The position numbers were made by a program, and so were the translations under genes. Positions 20,559-62,247 of a stretch of DNA of 64,000 bases are shown one piece after another (within the stretch, counting starts at the first letter, position 1; the number at the start of each line of letters is the position of its first letter). The notes under the pieces were generated by a model. The model saw only the letters and a program-made list of their open reading frames with translations, did no database searches and was not told the origin of the DNA. The stretch covers positions 22,560-86,559 of the forward strand of contig CAYPFQ010000001.1 in NCBI GenBank assembly GCA_964410135.1, given 5' to 3'. The stretch is from an uncultured Candidatus Bathyarchaeia archaeon (GTDB lineage Archaea > Thermoproteota > Bathyarchaeia > RBG-16-48-13 > CAYPFQ01).

Positions 20559-22652
20559 ATGCCTATCGCTAAAATAAGGAAGCGAGACGGAAGAATCGTC
20601 GATTTTGATTCCTCCAGAATTAGGGACGCGATTCACAAAGCTTTCATCGCAGTTGAACTTAAGGACGGAGAAAGGGCTGAAAGCATAACAAGCGAAGTGG
20701 TTAAGCTTTTAGAGGAAAAGTTTGAGGAAAGAATCCCATCGGTTGAAGATGTCCAAGACCTTGTCATCGAAGTTCTAAAGAAAAATGGCTACGCCAAAGT
20801 TGCAGCGGAATATCAAGATTACAGGAAGAAGAAAAAGGAAATAAGAGAATTAAAAGAGAAGCTTGGAATAGTAGCACCCAAGCTAACAGTAAACGCTCTC
20901 GAAGTTTTAAAGAAAAGATACCTTTTGAAAGATGAGACTGAAAGAATCATAGAAACTCCAGCTCAACTGTTCATGAGAATCGCCAAAGCCATAGCCGAAA
21001 TTGACGGAAAATATGGCGGAGACCAAGGGGAAAACGAAAAGATTTTCTATGAAATGCTGGCGGGGCTTAAATTTATCCCTAACTCTCCAACCCTTTTCAA
21101 TGCAGGGACAGAGATCGGCCAGTTATCAGCATGTTTCGTTTTACCTGTTGAGGATTCTCTGGAAAGCATTTTCACAACAGTAAAAAACATGGCGCTAATT
21201 GAACAGACTGGCGGAGGAGTCGGCTTCGACTTTTCTAGGCTAAGACCAAGTGGAGATATCGTCAGATCAACTAAGGGCGTTGCATCTGGTCCTGTAAGTT
21301 TCATGCGGGTTTTTGATATGGCTACTGAGATCATAAAGGCTGGAGGAAAAAGAAGGGGCGCTATGATGGGAATTCTAAGGGTTGACCACCCGGATATTAT
21401 TGAGTTTATAACTTCCAAACAAAAGCCGGGAATTCTTTCAAACTTCAATATTTCGGTTGCTGTCACTGATGAGTTCATGAAAACTCTTGAAGAAAACGGA
21501 GAATACTGGTTGATCAACCCGCGAAACAAAGAGAAAGTGCGGAAGCTTAAAGCCAGAGATGTTTGGAACTTGATGGCGAAGTCCGCATGGGAGAGCGGAG
21601 ACCCCGGAGTGGTTTTTATCGATGAAATTAACAGACATAACCCAACTCCTGAAATTGGAAGGATAGAAGCGACGAATCCTTGTGGAGAGCAGCCGTTGCT
21701 TCCCTATGAATCCTGTAATTTAGGTTCGATAAACCTTTCAAGGATGGTTGAAGATGGAAAAATTAACTGGGAAGAACTGAGAGAAACAGTGAGAAATGCT
21801 GTTCACTTTCTTGACAATGTTATAGACGTAAACAAGTATCGTTTGAAAGAAATAGAGGCGATAACCAAAGGCAACAGAAAAATAGGCTTAGGTGTTATGG
21901 GATTTGCCGACCTGCTCATAAAACTTGGGATTCCCTACAACTCTGAAAAAGCTCTGCAACTCGCTGAAGAGTTAATGAAATTTATTGAAGAAGAAGCTCA
22001 TAAGAAATCTGCAGAGATTGGTGAAGAAAGAGGTTTTTTCCCGAACTTTGAAAAAAGTATTTGGAAAGACAAGTATCGGGCTATGAGGAACGCTACAGTA
22101 ACAACCATAGCGCCAACAGGAAGCATAAGCATAATCGCAGGCTGCTCTTCCGGGATTGAGCCAATCTTTGCAATTTCCTTCATCAGAAATGTTTTAGGCG
22201 GAACCCGACTTTTCGAAACTAATCCCCTGTTCGAGATAATTGCAAAGGAAAGAGAGTTCTACAGCGCCAAACTTTTGGAAGAAATAGCGAGAACAGGTTC
22301 GGTTCAGAAGATCGAGAGGGTTCCTGAAGATGCTAAAAGCCTTTTTGTTACAGCTTTGGATATTCCGCCAGAATGGCATGTTAGAATGCAAGCCGTCTTC
22401 CAAAAGTATACCGACAACGCAGTGTCAAAAACAGTTAACCTGCCCTCCGAGGCGAGCGTTGAAGATGTCCGAAAGATTTTCGAGCTTGCTTGGAAACTGA
22501 AATGTAAGGGAGTCACCATATTCAGGTATGGAAGCAAGCCAGAGCAAGTTCTATACATTGGAGAAATAAAAACTGAGGAGAAACAATTTGTGGCTGCAGA
22601 ATCAGAGTATGCGGGTGGTTGCCCAACTAAAACTTGCCCATTCCCAGGCTAA
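20559..22652 (+). CDS. nrdJ: ribonucleoside-diphosphate/triphosphate reductase, adenosylcobalamin-dependent (class II) with N-terminal ATP-cone
   Basis: 697 aa. The ATP-cone is at the N-terminus (KIRKRDGRIVDFDSSRI). The catalytic NPCGEQPL motif and a class II C-terminal Cys-rich tail are present. Confidence 0.9.
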   Translation: MPIAKIRKRDGRIVDFDSSRIRDAIHKAFIAVELKDGERAESITSEVVKLLEEKFEERIPSVEDVQDLVIEVLKKNGYAKVAAEYQDYRKKKKEIRELKEKLGIVAPKLTVNALEVLKKRYLLKDETERIIETPAQLFMRIAKAIAEIDGKYGGDQGENEKIFYEMLAGLKFIPNSPTLFNAGTEIGQLSACFVLPVEDSLESIFTTVKNMALIEQTGGGVGFDFSRLRPSGDIVRSTKGVASGPVSFMRVFDMATEIIKAGGKRRGAMMGILRVDHPDIIEFITSKQKPGILSNFNISVAVTDEFMKTLEENGEYWLINPRNKEKVRKLKARDVWNLMAKSAWESGDPGVVFIDEINRHNPTPEIGRIEATNPCGEQPLLPYESCNLGSINLSRMVEDGKINWEELRETVRNAVHFLDNVIDVNKYRLKEIEAITKGNRKIGLGVMGFADLLIKLGIPYNSEKALQLAEELMKFIEEEAHKKSAEIGEERGFFPNFEKSIWKDKYRAMRNATVTTIAPTGSISIIAGCSSGIEPIFAISFIRNVLGGTRLFETNPLFEIIAKEREFYSAKLLEEIARTGSVQKIERVPEDAKSLFVTALDIPPEWHVRMQAVFQKYTDNAVSKTVNLPSEASVEDVRKIFELAWKLKCKGVTIFRYGSKPEQVLYIGEIKTEEKQFVAAESEYAGGCPTKTCPFPG

Positions 22653-24078: not shown

Positions 24079-25464
24079 TTATGAGGCGGGAGCAGCCTTT
24101 ACGCCCTCAATTTTAACCGCAGGGGTTATAGTTGGAAGCGCATGCCACGCCATTGCTTGAACAGCTTCTTTTCCAATTCCTCCAACATTGATAAGCCATC
24201 TAGGTAGGTTGTCGTAGATCCGCATCATCCCAACCGGATATTTGATCTCACCATTCTCAATTAGGAAGTTACCGCTTCTAGCGGTCGTTGAGAAGTCGCC
24301 CCGCTCTGGGTTAATTGGATATGTGTACCAAAGCCTACCTACAAGAATCCCATGCTTTGTTTCCTCAATTAGCTCTTCCATCGAATAACTGCCCGGCTTA
24401 ATGACAATGTTATGGGGGACAGGGAAGGGTATAGGATCATAACTTCTACCTATCGGATTGCCCATCCTGACGGCGTTTCCAGTGCTCTGTGTTTTGTCTT
24501 TGCTTGCGTAGAAAGTGTCATAGAGAAGGTTCTTGAAAATCCCCTCTTCTATGAGAGGGGTCCTTCTACTCGGAACTCCTTCATCATCAAAACTCTTGCT
24601 TCCAAGTCCGCCTGCGACTCGAGGGTCATCATATACCGTAACGCTGTCATCCGCGATTTTCTTGCCCAATTTTCCATAAAAACAACTAACTCTATCCTGA
24701 TAACCCTTGGAAATGAAGTGGGATGAGAATACGAAGGCTAAGACTTCACTAAAGGCAAGTGGTGTTAGCACGATACTATAACTATCTTCGTTAATGCGTT
24801 TGGGTTCAAGTGATTTCAAAGCCATATCTGCTGCGTTAATTCCCACTTGTTCAGCATTAAACTCTGAAAGAATTCGAGCGCCATCAAACCAGAATCCGCT
24901 CGCAACCGCAGACCCATCTCTAGCTTCGGCAGTAATTGTGCCAAGCACATAGCTAGCTTCTTCTTCAGCGTTTAATCCATGACTATTTGTGATCAGCACA
25001 TTTTCACGGACAACGTTCAGACTTCCGGATACATCTTTTATCTTCGCACCGCTCCCTAACGTTGAGTCCAGCATTTTAGATGCAATTACAACTGCCTCAT
25101 CTTCTGTCAACCTTGAAATCCTTTGATCCCAACACTCTGGGACTTTCTCGCACTTCTTAGGTTTAGGTAGCGATGTCCAATGCCCAGCTGGTCCACGAAT
25201 AATTGCCGAAGCTAACGCGTACTCAAGACTCTTCTTCAGATTATCTGAGGCCAGATTGGTCGTTGTAACTGATCCTATCGCTTTATTTTTAACTACGCGA
25301 ATCGCAATGCCTCGATCTCTGATACCTTTACTCTCAACGATCTGGCTATTCGCAATTCGAATCGTTAGAACCTCTTTATTCAGCGCGTAAACTTCTACTT
25401 CATCGAGCCCAAGGCTTTTGCCAATCTTCAAAGCATTCGAGCAAGCAATTTCCATCTCAACCAT
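24079..25464 (-). CDS. pmbA: TldD/PmbA-family metalloprotease component (PmbA/TldE-like)
   Basis: 461 aa with the TldD/PmbA fold and no HExxxH motif. It pairs with the adjacent tldD. Confidence 0.8.
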   Translation of the reverse strand: MVEMEIACSNALKIGKSLGLDEVEVYALNKEVLTIRIANSQIVESKGIRDRGIAIRVVKNKAIGSVTTTNLASDNLKKSLEYALASAIIRGPAGHWTSLPKPKKCEKVPECWDQRISRLTEDEAVVIASKMLDSTLGSGAKIKDVSGSLNVVRENVLITNSHGLNAEEEASYVLGTITAEARDGSAVASGFWFDGARILSEFNAEQVGINAADMALKSLEPKRINEDSYSIVLTPLAFSEVLAFVFSSHFISKGYQDRVSCFYGKLGKKIADDSVTVYDDPRVAGGLGSKSFDDEGVPSRRTPLIEEGIFKNLLYDTFYASKDKTQSTGNAVRMGNPIGRSYDPIPFPVPHNIVIKPGSYSMEELIEETKHGILVGRLWYTYPINPERGDFSTTARSGNFLIENGEIKYPVGMMRIYDNLPRWLINVGGIGKEAVQAMAWHALPTITPAVKIEGVKAAPAS

Positions 25465-25465
25465 A

Positions 25466-26893
25466 TTAAGTACTCCTAGTGCCTTGAACTATCGCAATCC
25501 CACGAATATGCGGCCCACCGTTTCCTACATGTAATCCCTGCATTGGATCTCCCTTGCCGCAGCTTGGGACTGGTCTGATCTGAAAATCTTTTCCAACGGC
25601 ATCAATTGACTTAAAGAATTCAGGCGCTATGCCTGCCACCGTGACATCTCTCAAAAGTTTTGTCAACTCGCCCTTCTCTATCATGAAACCCCATTGGGCG
25701 CTAATCTGCCAATTATATCGCCTCATATCGATGCTAGGTATCTTGTTACCTACCACGTAGACCCCTCGATGTACATCTTCCAGCATTTCCTCAAAAGTCC
25801 AGTCGCCAGGCTTGATGAAGGTGTTGCTCATCCGAATCAAAGGGACAAAGCGATAGGATGAGGCGCGCATACCCGCATTTGGTTTCACCCCGAAAATTGC
25901 GGCTGTTTCACGGCTGTGCATGTGGTTAGTTAGAATTCCGCCTTTAATCAGTTCTTTCTCCTCGGCTGGAACTCCCTCATCATCATATCTGTAATAGCCT
26001 AGGCCCCCCTCAATCCGAGGGTCATCTGACGCATTCAAAAACTCTGAGCCTACCTGCTGATAGAGCATGCCCTTCCACCAAGCCACCCCCGCCCAAGCCG
26101 CTTCTCGCCCAAGCACTCTGTCCGCCTCGGATGGATGCCCAAGAATCTCATGAGTAAGTAGCGCCACATAGTCCTGATCCAAAATCACTGGTAACCTCTC
26201 TGCTGATGGTGTGGGGGCTTTCAAAAGTGCAATCGCTTTCTTTGCGATATTTTCAGAAATCTCTATAGGGTCCGGCTCTATGATTCTCTCAACTCCGCCA
26301 GTACCGCCTTCTTCACGACCTACGGATTCGGTTAATCCGATCTGATGCGCGATAGCCTCGAGTCTTATGTAGCTTTTCGAATAATCGTAGCTTATGCGAG
26401 TGCCTTCAGTGCTATGGAAGAGTTTTAGGAGTCTATCCGTTCCTATGGCTACAGCCGCCTTATGGATCCTATCGCTTGTTTTTCGCATAGCCGAATCGCA
26501 GTCTTTCGCAAGTTTAACTCGTTCCTCGAGGGGATAGTCCTCAGGCTTTTGCTTCACTTTAACTATGTCTTTGTCTTCGACTACTTTCACGTCAGCAAGC
26601 CTAACTACTTCTCTAATCCGCGTATCTGATGCTTTCGCTAGCTTTACAGCCAGCTCGACTGCTTTCAAAACATCATTTTCTGTGAGCTTTGAAGTTGCAT
26701 AAAAACCCCAAGCGCCATGAGTTAATGCCCTTATTCCAGCGCCTTCATCTGTTCCTACAGCTACATGTTCAACTTTGCCATTTTCCAGTAGAAAGCTCTC
26801 GCCTACAGATTTTTCGATCCGTATATCTGCATAGCGCGCCCCCAGTTTTGATGCGTACGTCATCGCCTTTGAGGCTAAGTCTTCCAGCGACAA
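25466..26893 (-). CDS. tldD: metalloprotease TldD
   Basis: 475 aa carrying the HEILGHPSEADR catalytic motif of TldD. Confidence 0.85.
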   Translation of the reverse strand: MSLEDLASKAMTYASKLGARYADIRIEKSVGESFLLENGKVEHVAVGTDEGAGIRALTHGAWGFYATSKLTENDVLKAVELAVKLAKASDTRIREVVRLADVKVVEDKDIVKVKQKPEDYPLEERVKLAKDCDSAMRKTSDRIHKAAVAIGTDRLLKLFHSTEGTRISYDYSKSYIRLEAIAHQIGLTESVGREEGGTGGVERIIEPDPIEISENIAKKAIALLKAPTPSAERLPVILDQDYVALLTHEILGHPSEADRVLGREAAWAGVAWWKGMLYQQVGSEFLNASDDPRIEGGLGYYRYDDEGVPAEEKELIKGGILTNHMHSRETAAIFGVKPNAGMRASSYRFVPLIRMSNTFIKPGDWTFEEMLEDVHRGVYVVGNKIPSIDMRRYNWQISAQWGFMIEKGELTKLLRDVTVAGIAPEFFKSIDAVGKDFQIRPVPSCGKGDPMQGLHVGNGGPHIRGIAIVQGTRST

Positions 26894-29151: not shown

Positions 29152-29784
29152 ATGTCACTAAAGCGGGTTATCCATGACATACGCGTTGAACTAAAGGCGA
29201 AGGATCGTGTTAGGGAAGAGGTTCTAGCAGTTTCCCGTGAAATTGTCCGCTTATCTTCCGAAGCAATACTCTCAACTCATCGAAACGATTACGCTGGTGC
29301 GAAGAGGAGGCTGGTTCAAATTAAGAAGAAGATTGACCGTATGGATAAGCTGTTGCAGGGCTGGCCCGAAATAGCCCACAGCGGCGCAGTCTATGCGGCG
29401 TATCAAGAGTTCGCTGAAGCCGCCCTCCTTCTAAACTTCATTGCAGAAGATAAATTTCCAAGCCCTGAGGAACTGGGCATACCTTCCATACCATATGTTC
29501 TAGGATTAGCTGATATGGTCGGTGAACTGAGGCGAAAGGCCCTAGACTCGATAAGGGTTGGAGATCTGAAAACAGCGGAAAAATGCCTCGTTGTCATGGA
29601 AGATGTACAGAATCTGCTCATGACTCTCGAACATGCACATGTAATAGCTAAAGGATTAAGGAGAAAAATCGATGTAGCCAGAAAACTTATCGAAGAAACG
29701 AGGGGAGATGTCACAACAGAAGCGAGACGTAGCCTACTTGAAAAATCTATTAAAAAATTAGAGAAAACGGTTTGGCGAGGATAA
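29152..29784 (+). CDS. translin-family protein (archaeal translin homologue)
   Basis: 210 aa, all-helical, with the LGLADMVGELRR motif resembling the translin/TRAX core. Confidence 0.5.
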   Translation: MSLKRVIHDIRVELKAKDRVREEVLAVSREIVRLSSEAILSTHRNDYAGAKRRLVQIKKKIDRMDKLLQGWPEIAHSGAVYAAYQEFAEAALLLNFIAEDKFPSPEELGIPSIPYVLGLADMVGELRRKALDSIRVGDLKTAEKCLVVMEDVQNLLMTLEHAHVIAKGLRRKIDVARKLIEETRGDVTTEARRSLLEKSIKKLEKTVWRG

Positions 29785-31391
29785 AGATGGGTAAGCTGAA
29801 CCCAAATAAAATTTTGAAATGGGTTGAACGGGAAGGCTTTGAAAAAGTTTGGGCTCAAAGTGCCAGCCTTCTGCCACCGAAGAAGAAAGGTGCTAAACCA
29901 GCTCCAGCCAAAGCTGGAAAAACCCATCCGATCTTCGATCTTGTGCAAAAATTCCGTCAAGCCTTCATAAAATTAGGTTTTAATGAGATACTTAATCCTC
30001 TTGTGGTTGATGAGACAGAAGTCTATAAGCAGTACGGGCCTGAAGCTGCAATCATACTAGACAGATGCTACTACCTAGCCTCTCTTCCACGCCCAGAAAT
30101 TGGGCTCGGACTAGACAAGACTGAGGAGTTAGCGAAACTAAGTATAGCATTAACTCCAGAAAAAACCGAAAAACTCCAAGCCGTGCTACGGAGATACAAG
30201 AAGGGCGAGATCGACTCAGACGATCTAGTGCAAAGTCTCGCCGAATCTTTAGGGGTCTCGGATGCTGACGCTATCGCGGTAATTGAAAAAGTCTTCCCAG
30301 AGTTCGCGGCTCTCAAGCCTCAGCCCTCAACCCTGATCCTCCGTTCCCACATGACCAGTGCCTGGTTTAATACACTTAAATCACTACAATACAAAACCGA
30401 GCTACCCATCAAACTTTTCTCGGTCGATTACAAGTTTAGACGTGAACAGCAGGAGGATGCCACCCATCTAAGAAGTTCCTACGTAGCCAGCTGTGTGGTA
30501 ATGGACGAAGAAGTCGATGTAAAAGATGGCGAGGAAATTACAAAAGCCATACTTCAGCCACTAGGCTTTAAACGTTTCAAATTCGTCAAAAAGAAAGTCA
30601 CATCCCGATACTATGCACCTGGAACCGAATACGAAGGCTTCGTCTATTTCCCAGCGATGAAGCAATGGGTTGAGGTGGTGGATTACGGCATATACAACCC
30701 GATCGCCCTCGCAAAATATGGGATAGAATATCCAGTATTAAATGTGGGAATTGGCGTAGAACGTGTAGCAATGCTCCTACAGGGAGAGACTGACATTCGG
30801 CGATTAGCCTACCCATACGAATATGCCGAATGGGTTATGTCGGATACGCAGATAGCCAGCATGGTTCAAATCGCCAAACAACCCAAGACCCCCCAAGGCG
30901 AGAAACTGCAAAAAGCCATCATAAAAACCGCTATAAAATACGCTAAAAAACCAAGCCCCTGCGAGTTCACAGCTTTCAAGGGCAAAGTCTTTGGACGAAC
31001 ACTCGAAGTTTCAGTATACGAGCCAGATGTAGGCACAAAACTCCTAGGTCCCGCCGCCCTCAACTCAGTGTACGTCTACGACGGGAACATACTGGGAATC
31101 CCAGCCAAAGGACTAGAAGACAAGCCTCTTGTCAAAGAAGCACGGAAAAAAGGAATCTCAACTAAAATCAGGTATCTCGACGCTGTGGCCGCTCAGGCAG
31201 CAGCTGAGATTGAGCAAGCCGCACGGGTGGGCAGGCCTAAAATAATTAGTGTTCGAACAAAGATGGCTAAGCTCCCAAGCGATGTCAACATCCAGATTAG
31301 CGATGTTGCACAACGCTATGTCACAGGCAAAAACAGAATTATTTCAGTGAAAGGGCCAGTGTTCGTGGGAGTCAAAGCAAAAATTGTCTAG
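29772..31391 (+). CDS. sepS: O-phosphoserine--tRNA(Cys) ligase (SepRS)
   Basis: 539 aa collinear with methanogen SepRS. Matching blocks are THPIFD..RQAFIKLGF, VDE..VYKQYGPEA..LDRCYYLASLPRPEIGLG, TLILRSHMTSAWF, FRREQQED, SPCEF, LLGPAALNSVYVYDGNILGIP, IRYLDA and VKGPVFVGVKAKI. Confidence 0.9.
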   Translation: MARIKMGKLNPNKILKWVEREGFEKVWAQSASLLPPKKKGAKPAPAKAGKTHPIFDLVQKFRQAFIKLGFNEILNPLVVDETEVYKQYGPEAAIILDRCYYLASLPRPEIGLGLDKTEELAKLSIALTPEKTEKLQAVLRRYKKGEIDSDDLVQSLAESLGVSDADAIAVIEKVFPEFAALKPQPSTLILRSHMTSAWFNTLKSLQYKTELPIKLFSVDYKFRREQQEDATHLRSSYVASCVVMDEEVDVKDGEEITKAILQPLGFKRFKFVKKKVTSRYYAPGTEYEGFVYFPAMKQWVEVVDYGIYNPIALAKYGIEYPVLNVGIGVERVAMLLQGETDIRRLAYPYEYAEWVMSDTQIASMVQIAKQPKTPQGEKLQKAIIKTAIKYAKKPSPCEFTAFKGKVFGRTLEVSVYEPDVGTKLLGPAALNSVYVYDGNILGIPAKGLEDKPLVKEARKKGISTKIRYLDAVAAQAAAEIEQAARVGRPKIISVRTKMAKLPSDVNIQISDVAQRYVTGKNRIISVKGPVFVGVKAKIV

Positions 31392-34060: not shown

Positions 34061-34151
34061 GGGCCCATAGCTCAGTCAGGTAGAGCGGTGGACTCTTAGC
34101 CTTGAGTGGGAGATCCAAAGGTCGGGGGTCCAATTCCCCCTGGGCCCGCCA
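34061..34151 (+). tRNA. tRNA-Lys(CUU) with 14-nt intron at the canonical 37/38 position (intron ~34099-34112); CCA encoded
   Basis: GGGCCCATAGCTCAGTCAGGTAGAGCG, then GTGGA-CTCTTA[GCCTTGAGTGGGAG]A-TCCAA, then AGGTC-GGGGG-TCCAATT-CCCCC-TGGGCCC-G-CCA. Without the intron the loop is CUCUUAA, anticodon CUU. The T-loop TCCAATT has an unusual C at position 55. Confidence 0.8.
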
Positions 34152-41864: not shown

Positions 41865-42617
41865 TTAAGATGCTGCAGTTATAGGTAAGATTTCAACGGA
41901 TCCTGTGCATCCGTTAATTTTGAGTACTCGCGCCTCATTTTTAGGTTCTCGGATGTATTCGGCGTAGTAGAATGGGAAATAGAGTGTCGTAATTTCGTTT
42001 ACATTGACCGTTTCATTTTTTATTTTTTCTATGTCCTTGGGTCTTTGCGTTATGTGTTTTTTAAGGAGATCTACAGCTTTTTCAGTTAGGATTTCAACAT
42101 TTAGGATTTCATGTTGGTGTTCATGGTAGAAGCTTTCGTGTATCTCCTCCATTTTCACTTTTGGTAGCTCCTTTGCTATTTCCCTGCCTTTGCGGTCCAA
42201 TATCATTGTGGCTGAATTCCTAAATTGAACCAGTTCTGTCGCCTCAATTTTAAGCCCCTTTGTTGCGCTTCCCTCTTTCTCTGGCTGGGGGGTTAGCTTT
42301 TTATTGAAAACCTCAACTTCCGCGACCTCGGAATTGACTGGAACTGCATACGTGCTTTTTCGGTAATAGTCCAGGCTGTAGCTTCCGCTGATTCGTAGGT
42401 ATGGTTCATAATATTTCACGAACCGGGTGCATTTCAACTCATCTGGTTTGGGTTTGTTGAAGAATCTGAGCCGGGCGAAGGCGGAGATTTTTCTTTTTTC
42501 AGCGATTTCCCATGCTTTCACGCGGGTGATGTCGACTGAGCTCATTAGGATTTTTGGTTTTGCTAACTCTTTTGATGGCTCTTTAGACACTCGGCTCAAA
42601 TTCGGAAACACAACCAT
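41865..42617 (-). CDS. hypothetical protein (250 aa)
   Basis: Clean ORF with no recognisable motif. Confidence 0.3.
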   Translation of the reverse strand: MVVFPNLSRVSKEPSKELAKPKILMSSVDITRVKAWEIAEKRKISAFARLRFFNKPKPDELKCTRFVKYYEPYLRISGSYSLDYYRKSTYAVPVNSEVAEVEVFNKKLTPQPEKEGSATKGLKIEATELVQFRNSATMILDRKGREIAKELPKVKMEEIHESFYHEHQHEILNVEILTEKAVDLLKKHITQRPKDIEKIKNETVNVNEITTLYFPFYYAEYIREPKNEARVLKINGCTGSVEILPITAAS

Positions 42618-49072: not shown

Positions 49073-50722
49073 ATGAGTGTAGCGGTTCCAGGTGAATTGA
49101 GCGGTCAACCCATAATCATTCTAAAAGAAGGTACTGCGCGTAGACGAGGGCGAGAAGCCCAAAGAAACAATATTATGGCTGCGAAAATAATCGCTGAGGT
49201 TTTGAGGTCTACTCTTGGTCCACGTGGGATGGATAAACTGCTTGTGGACAGCCTTGGCGATGTTGTAATTACGAATGATGGCGCTACAATTCTTGACGAG
49301 ATTGATGTGCAACATCCCGCTGCAAAGATGCTTGTAGAAACAGCGAAAACCCAAGACAAAGAAGTAGGAGATGGAACTACTACTGTTGTTGTTTTGGCTG
49401 GTGAACTGTTGAAGAAAGCTGAAGAGCTTTTGGATCAGAATATTCACCCTACAACAATAGTGAGCGGATATAGGAAGGCGACTGACAAAGCCTTAGAAGT
49501 TCTATCAAAATTAGGGGTCACTACTGATATAAACGATCGTGCAACATTGAAGAAAATCGCTGTTACTTCAATGCACAGCAAGTCTATCGGGGCTGCGAAG
49601 GAACACTTCGCCGATATAGCACTTGAAGCTGTTAAGCAGGTTGCGGAGAAACGGGGTGACCACTGGATTACTGACATTGACCAGATTCAAATTGTAAAGA
49701 AAGCTGGTGAAAGCCTCATCGATACGCAGCTCATCAGAGGGATTGTTGTCGATAAGGAAGTTGTGCACTCAGAAATGCCTAAGCGAGTTGAGAAGGCAAA
49801 AATTGCACTGCTAGATTGCCCATTAGAAATTGAAAAAACCGAGTTTAGCGCAGAAATCCGAATTCGTGACCCAACTCAGATGAAAGCATTTCTCGACGAA
49901 GAGACGCATATGCTGAAAGCTATGGTTGACAAGATCAAGTCTTCAAATGCGAATGTCATCTTCTGCCAGAAGGGAATCGATGACATGGCACAGCACTTTT
50001 TAGCCAAAGAAGGAATCCTGGCTGTTAGAAGAGTGAAGAATTCTGACATGGAGAAACTTGCTAGAGCCACAGGCGCCCGGCTTGTTACAAATCTCGATGA
50101 TCTTAAACCTACTGACTTAGGTTCGGCAAACCTTGTATATGAGCGGAAGATCGGTGAAGACAAAATGGTGTTCGTTGAGGGATGCAAAGATCCCAAGTCG
50201 GTCAGCATACTCATTCGCGGCGGTCTGGAACGAATGGTAGATGAAGCGGAAAGAGCTATGCACGATGGGCTAAGCGTTGTTGCGGACGTGATTAAAAATA
50301 ACAGGATGGTGGCTGGTGGAGGCTCGATAGAGGCCGAAATAGCAAAACAATTACGTGACTACGCCCCTAAGGTCGGAGGAAGGGAACAACTCGCTATCGA
50401 AGCATTTGCCGAAGCTTTAGAGGTCATCCCCAAAACTCTGGCTGAAAATGCTGGGTTAGATCCAATCGACATAATGGTGTCTCTGAAAGCCGCTCATGAG
50501 AAGGCAAAGGGCACCTGGATGGGTGTAGGAATATTCAGTGGCAAAGTAGTTGATATGATGGAGAGTGGCGTAGTTGAACCCCTGAGCGTTAAAGAACAAG
50601 CAGTTAAGTCGGCGACGGAAGCTACCTCAATGATTATGAGGATAGACGACGTAATCGCAGCCTCGAAACCCTCTAAGAGAGAGATGCCGCCCATGCCTCC
50701 AGGTGGAATGGAAGGCTACTAG
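49073..50722 (+). CDS. ths: thermosome subunit (group II chaperonin)
   Basis: 549 aa with [17 protein letters not shown] and [16 protein letters not shown] motifs. The C-terminal tail is Met/Gly-rich. Confidence 0.95.
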
Positions 50723-59142: not shown

Positions 59143-60219
59143 TTGGTGAGGAAGGAAATTAGAATTGGAATTGCTGGTGTGGGGAACTGCTGCTCTGCAC
59201 TAGTTCAGGGGCTAATTTACTATCGTAAAACTGGTGAAGGCGAGCGCTCTGAAGGGTTAACTCTAACAAATGTTGGAGGATATCTGCCACGCGATATCAA
59301 ACTAACAGCTGCATTTGACGTTGATCGAAGAAAGATAGGTCAAGATTTAGGTAAAGCGATCTTTGCCGAGCCTAATAGTTGCATGAAGGTTTGTGAAATC
59401 GGAGTTCTTGGCGTAGAGGTGCTTAAGGGTCCAGCATTGGATGGCGTAGGGCGTGATATGCGTGAGTACATCTTAGTCGATGAGTCTTCCCCTGTTAACG
59501 TGGCTGAAGCATTAAGAGGGTCAAAAACTGAGATATTATTGAATCTTTTACCAGTTGGAGCCAGCATAGCATCCAAATTTTATGCAAATGAGGCTCTGAA
59601 AGCTAACTGTGCCTACGTAAACTGTTCACCAGCAAAAATCGTCACCGACAAAGCCATCGCAACCAGATTTAAGAGGGCTAGATTGCCCCTCATAGGCGAT
59701 GACCTGATGAGCCAGATAGGCGGAACAATTTTCCACAAAAATCTCCTAGAATTTTTAAACAGCCGCGGAGTTAAAGTCCAAAACTCATACCAATTAGATG
59801 TAGGTGGAGGAACCGAATCCCTCGCAACAATTGAGGAGTCCAGAAAGATGCTAAAACGAAACATCAAAACTGACTCGATCAAAAGCGCACTGCCATACAA
59901 ATTTAACGTAGTTTCCGGCACAACCGACTATGTCGAATTCTTAGGCAATCAAAGAGTCAGCTACTATTGGCTGAGCGGGAAGTACTTTCTTGGCGCACCG
60001 GTACTCATGGACATCTACCTCAGGACCCTCGACGGGCCGAACAGCGGAGCAATTCTTTTCGATATCATACGCGCTTGCAAACTAGCCTTAGAGCGAAAAA
60101 TCGGAGGACCGTTAGTCAGCGTGTCGGCATACGGCTTCAAGAATCCGCCTGAAAGGATGCCAGTAAACCTTGCGAAACAGCGCTTTATAGAATTCGTAGA
60201 AGGCAGGAGAAGAAACTAA
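59143..60219 (+). CDS. myo-inositol-1-phosphate synthase-family protein (archaeal short MIPS)
   Basis: 358 aa with TTG start. The NAD-binding N-terminus is IRIGIAGVGNCCSALVQG, and length and pattern fit archaeal MIPS. Confidence 0.65.
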   Translation: MVRKEIRIGIAGVGNCCSALVQGLIYYRKTGEGERSEGLTLTNVGGYLPRDIKLTAAFDVDRRKIGQDLGKAIFAEPNSCMKVCEIGVLGVEVLKGPALDGVGRDMREYILVDESSPVNVAEALRGSKTEILLNLLPVGASIASKFYANEALKANCAYVNCSPAKIVTDKAIATRFKRARLPLIGDDLMSQIGGTIFHKNLLEFLNSRGVKVQNSYQLDVGGGTESLATIEESRKMLKRNIKTDSIKSALPYKFNVVSGTTDYVEFLGNQRVSYYWLSGKYFLGAPVLMDIYLRTLDGPNSGAILFDIIRACKLALERKIGGPLVSVSAYGFKNPPERMPVNLAKQRFIEFVEGRRRN

Positions 60220-61384: not shown

Positions 61385-62137
61385 TTATGTCTCTTCCAAT
61401 GCTCTCTTCACCTTTTCAAGGAAAGTCAAATACTCCGCGAGCAGCCGTCTGCCCAAAGGACTTAGCTCATATTGATTGTCCAGGCTTTCGCTGATTAGCC
61501 TATTAGCCAGAAATGAGGACAGATTCTCGTACACGAGTTTCGGATTGATCTCAACACGATACTGTTTCTTTCCGCGCGGGCGTTCAAGCAGCTGAAGCAG
61601 CATTCTTATCCTTGTCTCATTGGATAACAGATCCAAAATATCTATTGCCTCCCTGAACGGTTCCTCCAGCCTAGAGTCCAGCCAGCAGACACGCTCAATA
61701 GTGAGCTTGCCGGATGCAACCTCGTCTTGAAAATCTTTGCCAATAACAGTAGGGTCGATCGAAAACGGATAGAGCACAATCGCCCTAGCGTTGCTGGCTT
61801 TGGCTAGTATGCCTAGGTCTCGGTAGAGCTGTTCTGTTGGAGGGGCTGTCTCGCAAAATACAACTTTCAACTCGTCATCCAACTTCCCGCAAACATCCGC
61901 AACAACCCAGTTGCCCAGAGGATCCCTTGACCGCGGGACACGGAGCAGGGTGCTCTCAACAAATGTTTCCATGCAACCGTTCTCAATCAGCGACCGCGCG
62001 GCATGATACTTCTCCAGCAGATGAAGCCCGCTTTCCCGTGGATCTCTGCCGAAACGTAGCTTGAACGCTTCGTAATCAACGATATGCTGGGGAAGCACCC
62101 TGGCTTTCCTTGAATTTGGATGAAGTAGTAGGCGCAT
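61385..62137 (-). CDS. putative transcriptional regulator with C-terminal winged-helix (ArsR-like) domain
   Basis: 250 aa. The C-terminal LDLLSNETRIRMLLQLLERPRGKKQYRVEIN is a wHTH. It lies upstream of hsp20, and palindromic operators sit in its own promoter. Confidence 0.45.
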   Translation of the reverse strand: MRLLLHPNSRKARVLPQHIVDYEAFKLRFGRDPRESGLHLLEKYHAARSLIENGCMETFVESTLLRVPRSRDPLGNWVVADVCGKLDDELKVVFCETAPPTEQLYRDLGILAKASNARAIVLYPFSIDPTVIGKDFQDEVASGKLTIERVCWLDSRLEEPFREAIDILDLLSNETRIRMLLQLLERPRGKKQYRVEINPKLVYENLSSFLANRLISESLDNQYELSPLGRRLLAEYLTFLEKVKRALEET

Positions 62138-62144
62138 ATTAATC

Positions 62145-62193
62145 TGTTACCAAAAGTAACAAAACCTGCTTATAAATGTTACCACTGGTAACA
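62145..62193. promoter_or_regulatory. two palindromic operator-like sites (TGTTAC-N5-GTAACA and TGTTACC-N3-GGTAACA) flanking a TTATAAAT box in the promoter of the wHTH regulator gene
   Basis: 62145-62161 reads TGTTACCAAAAGTAACA and 62177-62193 reads TGTTACCACTGGTAACA. The TATA-like cttataaatg lies between them. The start codon of the minus-strand gene is at 62137. Confidence 0.4.
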
Positions 62194-62247
62194 TGGACGA
62201 CCCTCCAGCCTTCGCATAAGGTTGCAGAGGTCAAAACCCAGACAAAA

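Follow-up and report, generated by a model that had tools for sequence, protein, structure and literature searches.

We describe a bathyarchaeal promoter in which two perfect 17-bp palindromes, TGTTAC-N5-GTAACA, bracket the TATA box of a winged helix-turn-helix (wHTH) regulator gene that is followed by hsp20 and an open reading frame (ORF) with an HExxH motif. In our judgement the most probable reading, to which we give a probability of about 70%, is that the adjacent 250-aa protein uses the palindromes as its operators and would act as a dimeric ArsR/Phr-like repressor that autoregulates a regulator-hsp20-HExxH proteostasis operon. The locus lies in a 64-kb stretch of DNA, hereafter referred to as the window. 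Upon re-reading the sequence, we found both palindromes, and the order of regulator gene, hsp20 and HExxH ORF, just where the original prediction had placed them (Table 1), and the comparative data presented below lend strong support to its central proposal, in which an autoregulated wHTH gene at the head of an hsp20/HExxH operon has its TATA box flanked by a pair of operators.

Table 1. Features of the predicted operon and of its promoter, numbered from the first letter of the window.
Feature	Position	Strand	Description
Intergenic promoter region	62138..62247	-	110 bp, from the DNA ligase stop codon to the regulator start codon
Predicted operator site 1, TGTTACCAGTGGTAACA	62177..62193	-	Perfect palindrome at the upstream edge of the TATA box, over the BRE position
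TATA box, TTTATAA	62170..62176	-	Read from the sequence; T(T)TATA(T/A) is kept at the same position in orthologous promoters
Predicted operator site 2, TGTTACTTTTGGTAACA	62145..62161	-	Perfect palindrome; covers the inferred transcription start
Regulator gene, 250 aa	61385-62137	-	ATG at 62137
Regulator N-terminal domain, ~residues 1-155	61673..62137	-	PD-(D/E)xK restriction-endonuclease-like fold; no Pfam match
Regulator C-terminal domain, ~residues 156-250 and stop codon	61385..61672	-	ArsR/SmtB-type wHTH
hsp20, 206 aa	60734-61354	-	Pfam HSP20; NCBIfam archaeal Hsp20 score of 141.8 against a cutoff of 140
HExxH (HEYLH) ORF, 167 aa	60228-60731	-	Zincin-like putative metallopeptidase of an uncharacterised family; directly after hsp20

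A scan of the 64 kb for TGTTAC-N5-GTAACA returned exact matches at these two positions only, compared to a chance expectation of 0.07 exact matches per 64 kb under a mononucleotide model with 10 specified core bases. The pairing is far beyond chance, and the observation is confirmed as real. Read along the minus strand, site 1 (TGTTACCAGTGGTAACA) runs directly into TTTATAA, which is separated by the 8 nt GCAGGTTT from site 2 (TGTTACTTTTGGTAACA), and the 7 nt GATTAAT then lead to the ATG. The two sites are 32 bp apart when measured from centre to centre.

The original prediction hung in part on whether the motif is conserved upstream of orthologous regulators, and this proved to be so: the palindromes are found in more than 100 related genomes. 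Our ortholog set comprised 117 loci from genomes and metagenomes, amounting to 951 kb of DNA, and the named genomes of the fetched loci are all Bathyarchaeia, save a few bins labelled bacterial. Sites with at most one mismatch occur within 120 nt upstream of the regulator start in 110 of the 117 loci, with 65 loci carrying two sites. Amongst 93 non-identical promoters, GTTAC-N5-GTAAC is present at a fixed place in 91, whose regulators have 42-100% protein identity, and site 1 begins 52-59 nt upstream of the start codon. The conservation of site 1 is extreme, with one substitution in the 910 GTTAC/GTAAC half-site positions of these 91 promoters and an information content per position of 1.99 bits for the half-sites, compared to 0.88 bits for the spacer and 0.17 bits for the intergenic flank upstream. 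In the 89 promoters in which the gap was scored, the end of site 1 is 1-3 nt from the T(T)TATA(T/A) box. A variant is found in the L030/L031 clade, where site 1 has an N6 spacer (GTTAC-CTTTAG-GTAAC in L030) and site 2 still has N5.

This pattern bears on whether the palindromes might instead represent nucleic-acid secondary structure, such as a hairpin that terminates the upstream gene or one that lies in the 5'-UTR. Although a 6-bp hairpin is possible at each site and the two sites can pair together, with a z-score of only -1.7, the arms are invariant and show no compensatory changes, and site 1 is located upstream of the TATA box. Moreover, neither site is followed by a T-run or has an Rfam match, and the genes upstream of the regulator differ between clades: an ATP-dependent DNA ligase gene occupies this position in the window, while a carbamoyltransferase-like gene or EF-1beta is found there in others. 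A structural role is thus already disfavoured, and we regard it as scarcely credible.

Site 2 is positioned 30-33 bp downstream of site 1, start to start, in the orthologous promoters, and usually ends 9 or 13 nt upstream of the start codon. Clustering of the regulator proteins yielded seven clades, six of which have both sites. In the remaining clade, which consists of 37 loci, site 1 is found alone and site 2 is therefore dispensable; hsp20 was identified in 0 of the 33 loci from this clade with enough downstream sequence. The presence of two sites was initially associated with that of hsp20 in the operon, as hsp20 follows the regulator in 37 of the 41 two-site loci whose downstream sequence was long enough, versus 1/35. 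Analysis by clade traced this association to a single loss event, and since it reflects one evolutionary event, it does not constitute independent evidence and was dropped as a statistical argument.

Outside of the regulator promoters the motif is scarce. Only five sites with at most one mismatch were found there in the 951 kb, one of which is itself the promoter of a regulator gene with an incomplete match, and amongst 60 palindromes of the same composition, this motif was the rarest outside regulator promoters (5 occurrences, range 5-126, at one mismatch or fewer in ~1 Mb). This rarity hints at possible selection against stray operator sites. The wider stress regulon that had been envisaged was not borne out, as scans of the 64 kb, of the ~10 kb that adjoins it on the right (L128-134) and of ~1 Mb of orthologous neighbourhoods gave no further sites; the other promoters in which we found the motif are solely those of related regulators, whose operons carry hsp20 or cdc48. 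The promoter of the thermosome gene in the window (Cpn60_TCP1, 549 aa, 49073-50722, +) has a TATA box and a GGAGG-type leader and lacks GTTAC-N5-GTAAC, indicating that the classic chaperonin is not under this operator. The motif is also missing from the promoter of the inositol-1-phosphate synthase gene in the window, whose Pyrococcus homologue PF1616 is reported to be heat-induced (PMC10746257). With no site at any stress promoter of the scanned DNA outside of the regulators' operons, what speaks for heat or stress as the signal is the nature of the co-transcribed genes, together with analogy. Approximately 5 kb past the right end of the window there is a gene for a 299-aa HrcA-type winged helix and CBS protein (L130 3962-4861; L131 2747-3646). 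A 205-aa ArsR-like gene ~8 kb away (L131 835-1452) was also considered and is not a clear Phr orthologue.

As autoregulation is deduced from position only, the palindromes could in principle be bound by an unlinked global factor, with the adjacent wHTH protein recognising something else. Such a factor would be expected to have sites elsewhere in the ~1 Mb of sampled DNA, where the motif is instead depleted, and the motif is nearly exclusive to promoters of this wHTH, across three protein architectures with differing neighbours. We consider this explanation quite unlikely, and favour binding by the adjacent regulator.

The regulator family appears to be Bathyarchaeia-restricted and is set sharply apart from other sequences, and each member derives from an uncultured organism. 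Among 1.84 billion cluster representatives, ~31 sequences formed a tight group, after which the E values jump from 1e-16 to 1e-9, and the 250-aa family comprises 27 clusters at 90% identity. Its C-terminal domain has the alpha1-alpha2-alpha3-alphaR-beta-beta-alpha5 arrangement of the winged-helix fold, and the recognition helix, INPKLVYENL, is invariant in the 250-aa family. None of the curated ArsR models passed for the window protein (Pfam HTH_5, for which there was no hit, Pfam HTH_20 and NCBIfam HTH_metalloreg), and the only curated-model match was PF25213, at 27.6-30.9 bits and thus below its 35-bit cutoff. The N-terminal domain has the alpha-beta-beta-beta-alpha-beta core of the PD-(D/E)xK superfamily. 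Within the 250-aa family D81 and E96 are invariant and position 98 lacks a lysine; E42 and K43, in helix 1 of this domain, are likewise invariant. Given that the canonical lysine is missing and that E96 is replaced by S, Q or T in a sister family, catalysis by the N-terminal domain is doubtful. We infer a role for this domain in sensing or oligomerisation. Two regulator copies are found on different contigs of the assembled genomes CAWHWX01 (L020 and L027) and CAYWMG01 (L024 and L029), which could be paralogues or the result of strain mixture.

The PD-(D/E)xK fold with its invariant D81 and E96, and the depletion of the motif elsewhere, would also be compatible with a nuclease-related element of a restriction, controller-like or mobile type, whose recognition or cleavage sites, or C-boxes, would be the palindromes. 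The replacement of E96 in the sister family and the absent (D/E)xK lysine speak against this, as do the stable synteny with hsp20, the HExxH gene and cdc48, and the retention of both sites by a short regulator family that is devoid of the nuclease-fold domain. In addition, when we considered a restriction-modification controller (C-protein), no methyltransferase was found among the neighbouring genes (DNA ligase, hsp20, HExxH and inositol-1-phosphate synthase), nor were mobile-element genes found nearby. An element of this kind is, in our view, very unlikely.

The sister and short families were identified using a profile of the C-terminal domain. In the sister family (L118-121), the recognition helix reads INPKLVYHNL, the promoter has the arrangement GTTACTTCAGGTAAC-A-TTTATCT-N9-GTTACCATAGGTAAC, and hsp20 overlaps the end of the regulator gene. 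In these same loci (L118-L121, 3853-4000), a frame with clear homology to the regulator N-terminus (…LDYGTFSNRFG…) runs ~140 nt upstream of the called ATG and reaches an in-frame TAA without any ATG, GTG or TTG. This leaves either initiation at a non-canonical codon or an N-terminally truncated protein. The short family consists of the wHTH alone, at 116-125 aa, and its gene is located between those for EF-1beta and the Cdc48/VAT AAA+ ATPase in every locus examined (L035-37, L123-127), preceded by two perfect palindromes around TTTATAA. In all three architectures, two sites flank the TATA box, and the invariance of the half-site is paralleled by that of the N-P-K-L-x-Y-x-N pattern in the recognition helix. 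The motif thus goes with the wHTH, which is the only protein element common to the three architectures that have the operator pair. This shared operator pair is, in our view, the best argument at hand for binding of the palindrome by the wHTH and for autoregulation of these genes. The N-terminal domain, on the other hand, is not needed for the operator arrangement, which the short family keeps without it.

The genes that follow the regulator are consistent with a single operon devoted to proteostasis. In the window, hsp20 begins 30 nt past the regulator stop codon and is preceded by GGAGG, with no promoter motif between the two genes. The HExxH gene is found downstream of the regulator in 68 of the 76 loci with enough downstream sequence, and in L003 the operon consists of the regulator gene, the HExxH gene and then cdc48. 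The HExxH protein had no Pfam or NCBIfam hit at threshold. Across 38 members of its family, weak matches were obtained to SprT-like (11/38) and Zincin_1 (4/38) models, none matched Peptidase_M78 or COG2856, and residues H92, E93, H96, G99, E103 and H122 are invariant. A match of this protein to bacterioferritin in the PDB (E 0.008) was judged spurious, and a 163-aa ORF that follows hsp20 in L122 is not an HExxH homologue. A myo-inositol-1-phosphate synthase gene (59143-60219, +) converges on the operon, an arrangement that is the same in the close relatives L040 and L041.

How repression by the adjacent regulator might operate can be proposed from the geometry of the promoter. The centres of the two GTTAC half-sites are separated by 10 bp, a distance consistent with a single wHTH dimer on each 15-17-bp palindrome. 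As site 1 lies over the BRE position and directly next to the TATA box, its occupation should exclude TFB and TBP. Transcription is predicted to start within site 2, ~24-26 nt past the TATA box, which would leave a leader of ~10 nt lacking a Shine-Dalgarno sequence. Because site 2 covers this predicted start in the manner of the Phr site, its occupation should block the recruitment of RNA polymerase, as in Phr. The spacing of 30-33 bp corresponds to about three helical turns and would thus place both dimers on one face of the DNA, where they may bind cooperatively, possibly through the N-terminal nuclease-fold domain. Heat or another proteotoxic stress would then release the repressor from the DNA and allow the operon to be transcribed. 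Heat or proteotoxic stress is the probable signal, as suggested by the identity of the co-transcribed genes, hsp20, that for the zincin-like protein and cdc48. The fetched genomes are labelled as coming from peat and other environmental metagenomes, which does not indicate hot habitats, and the term "heat shock" may consequently be too narrow.

The same geometry could be read as that of an activator, or of a regulator with a dual role, in which the adjacent protein binds both sites but uses site 1 to recruit TFB/TBP and site 2 for negative feedback. Some archaeal regulators do have upstream sites that recruit TFB and TBP. In the present promoters, the universally conserved site is site 1, upstream of the TATA box, which is still kept by the clade that has site 1 only, and its right half, GGTAAC[A/G], is at the BRE position and could double as part of the BRE. 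However, archaeal activation sites are normally located upstream of the BRE rather than on it, and a dimer on a palindrome that ends just 1-3 nt short of the TATA box would be expected to collide with TFB. The nearest analogues in function, Phr and HSR1, both act as repressors. We therefore deem an activating or dual role unlikely, and retain repression as the preferred reading.

Phr and HSR1, both of which are euryarchaeal, are the only characterised archaeal heat-shock regulators (PMC9133787), and no thermal regulator is known from Crenarchaeota (PMC10746257). Both proteins are in arCOG01684 and are linked to HSP20 and CDC48 (PMC5852551), and hsp20 and cdc48 are genes under Phr and HSR1 control (PMC5852551, PMC9133787). 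The motif had at first been thought to be unlike the Phr and HSR1 sites. This impression was wrong, as the motif shares its 5-N5-5 design and AC-N5-GT core with the HSR1 site, and site 1 contains the TGGTAA of Phr sites. The HSR1 site, CTAAC-N5-GTTAG, lies upstream of its own hsp20-containing operon (PMC9133787). Compared to this site from HSR1 (AF1298) of Archaeoglobus fulgidus, the GTTAC-N5-GTAAC of the window has the same architecture and the same core while differing at 2 of the 5 half-site positions, and the gene linkage of HSR1 is mirrored by the short bathyarchaeal paralog, next to which cdc48 is found. The window system differs from HSR1 in that its protein has an extra 155-aa nuclease-fold N-terminal domain, its promoter has two operators that bracket the TATA box, and its host is a TACK-lineage archaeon, whereas that of HSR1 is euryarchaeal.

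Phr (PF1790, Pyrococcus furiosus, PDB 2P4W) likewise represses its own gene together with hsp20 and an AAA+ ATPase gene. It requires TTTA, TGGTAA and AAAA in a site over the transcription start, and it prevents RNA polymerase from being recruited (PMC9133787). In contrast to the window promoter, Phr promoters have one site each, none of which is over the BRE position, and the A/T-rich flanks of Phr sites (TTTA, AAAA) are not conserved in the bathyarchaeal sites. At the protein level, the window family shares with Phr an LLDxLxNETRxRxL helix and a K-x-V-x-E-x-L recognition helix, and Phr (2P4W) was the only wHTH match of the family profile among 177,635 distinct PDB sequences, albeit a remote one. 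For this match, hmmsearch gave E 0.22 with the family profile and E 0.01 with a wHTH-only profile, and hhalign gave a probability of 74-82%, E ~1e-5 and 36% identity over 53-55 columns. The Phr sequence that we used is identical to chain A of 2P4W. These values are suggestive of remote homology between the two wHTH domains. The wHTH of Phr is N-terminal and accompanied by a long C-terminal helical domain, while that of the window protein is C-terminal and follows the PD-(D/E)xK-like domain; Phr passes both Pfam HTH_5 and HTH_20, whereas the window protein does not. The NCBIfam Phr_regulator model had no hit for the window protein and gave the short paralog a score of 15 bits, below its cutoff of 320, and the nearest remote sequence neighbours of the family are generic ArsR/HTH_5 proteins.

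Given the unmatched NCBIfam model, the generic ArsR neighbours and the reversed domain order, we did not file the system in the Phr/HSR1 family; by analogy, we conclude that it likely works as HSR1 and Phr do. Of the features that define control of the Phr/HSR1 type, autoregulation through an operator in the regulator's own promoter near the transcription start is indicated here by position only, and control of hsp20 and cdc48 by linkage only, with hsp20 in the operon and cdc48 after the short paralog. What would be new is a Bathyarchaeia-restricted variant of a Phr/HSR1-type stress repressor whose N-terminal domain has a nuclease fold and whose promoter has one of its sites over the BRE position.

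Resemblances to two further groups of regulators are more general. ArsR/SmtB repressors have the alpha1-alpha2-alpha3-alphaR-wing-alpha5 fold of the C-terminal domain and are also dimeric, binding palindromic operators; the window family differs from them in having no evident metal-sensing motifs and another fusion partner. ImmR/ImmA and DdrO/IrrE pair a small HExxH protein with an autoregulated HTH repressor in one transcript, as is predicted here. The likeness is one of analogy only, as the bathyarchaeal HExxH protein has no detectable Peptidase_M78 similarity, and the short and sister regulator families use the same operators without an HExxH protein. A bolder version of our proposal would be that this is the first heat or proteotoxic-stress repressor from the TACK lineage, with a new mode of sensing through an N-terminal sensor or a dimer linker and with the HExxH protein as a possible anti-repressor protease. 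We hold this to be doubtful; if true, it would represent a distinct solution built on an ancient Phr/HSR1-type operator, in which the HExxH protein acts in the manner of ImmA/IrrE.

Collectively, the locus offers a precise and testable candidate for a stress regulator in Bathyarchaeia, an abundant uncultured lineage. It supplies a 17-bp operator, a promoter geometry in which the BRE position and the predicted transcription start are each covered by a site, and a protein family of three architectures, amongst which the joining of a wHTH to a nuclease-fold domain was unexpected. It also lends support to an ancient origin in archaea of Phr/HSR1-type control of hsp20 and cdc48, as has been proposed (PMC5852551), and proteostasis operons in metagenome-assembled bathyarchaeal genomes could be predicted by means of the invariant motif.

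Several other genes in the window merit mention. These include a class I/II-type ribonucleotide reductase with an ATP-cone domain (20559-22652, +), a tandem pair of TldD/PmbA metallopeptidases (24079-26893, -), an O-phosphoseryl-tRNA synthetase-like gene with tRNA-synt_2d and SepRS_C matches (29772-31391, +), and a second 250-aa ORF (41865-42617, -), which had no Pfam match at E <=1e-5. A single tRNA gene (34061-34148, +) accounts for the only Rfam match in the window.
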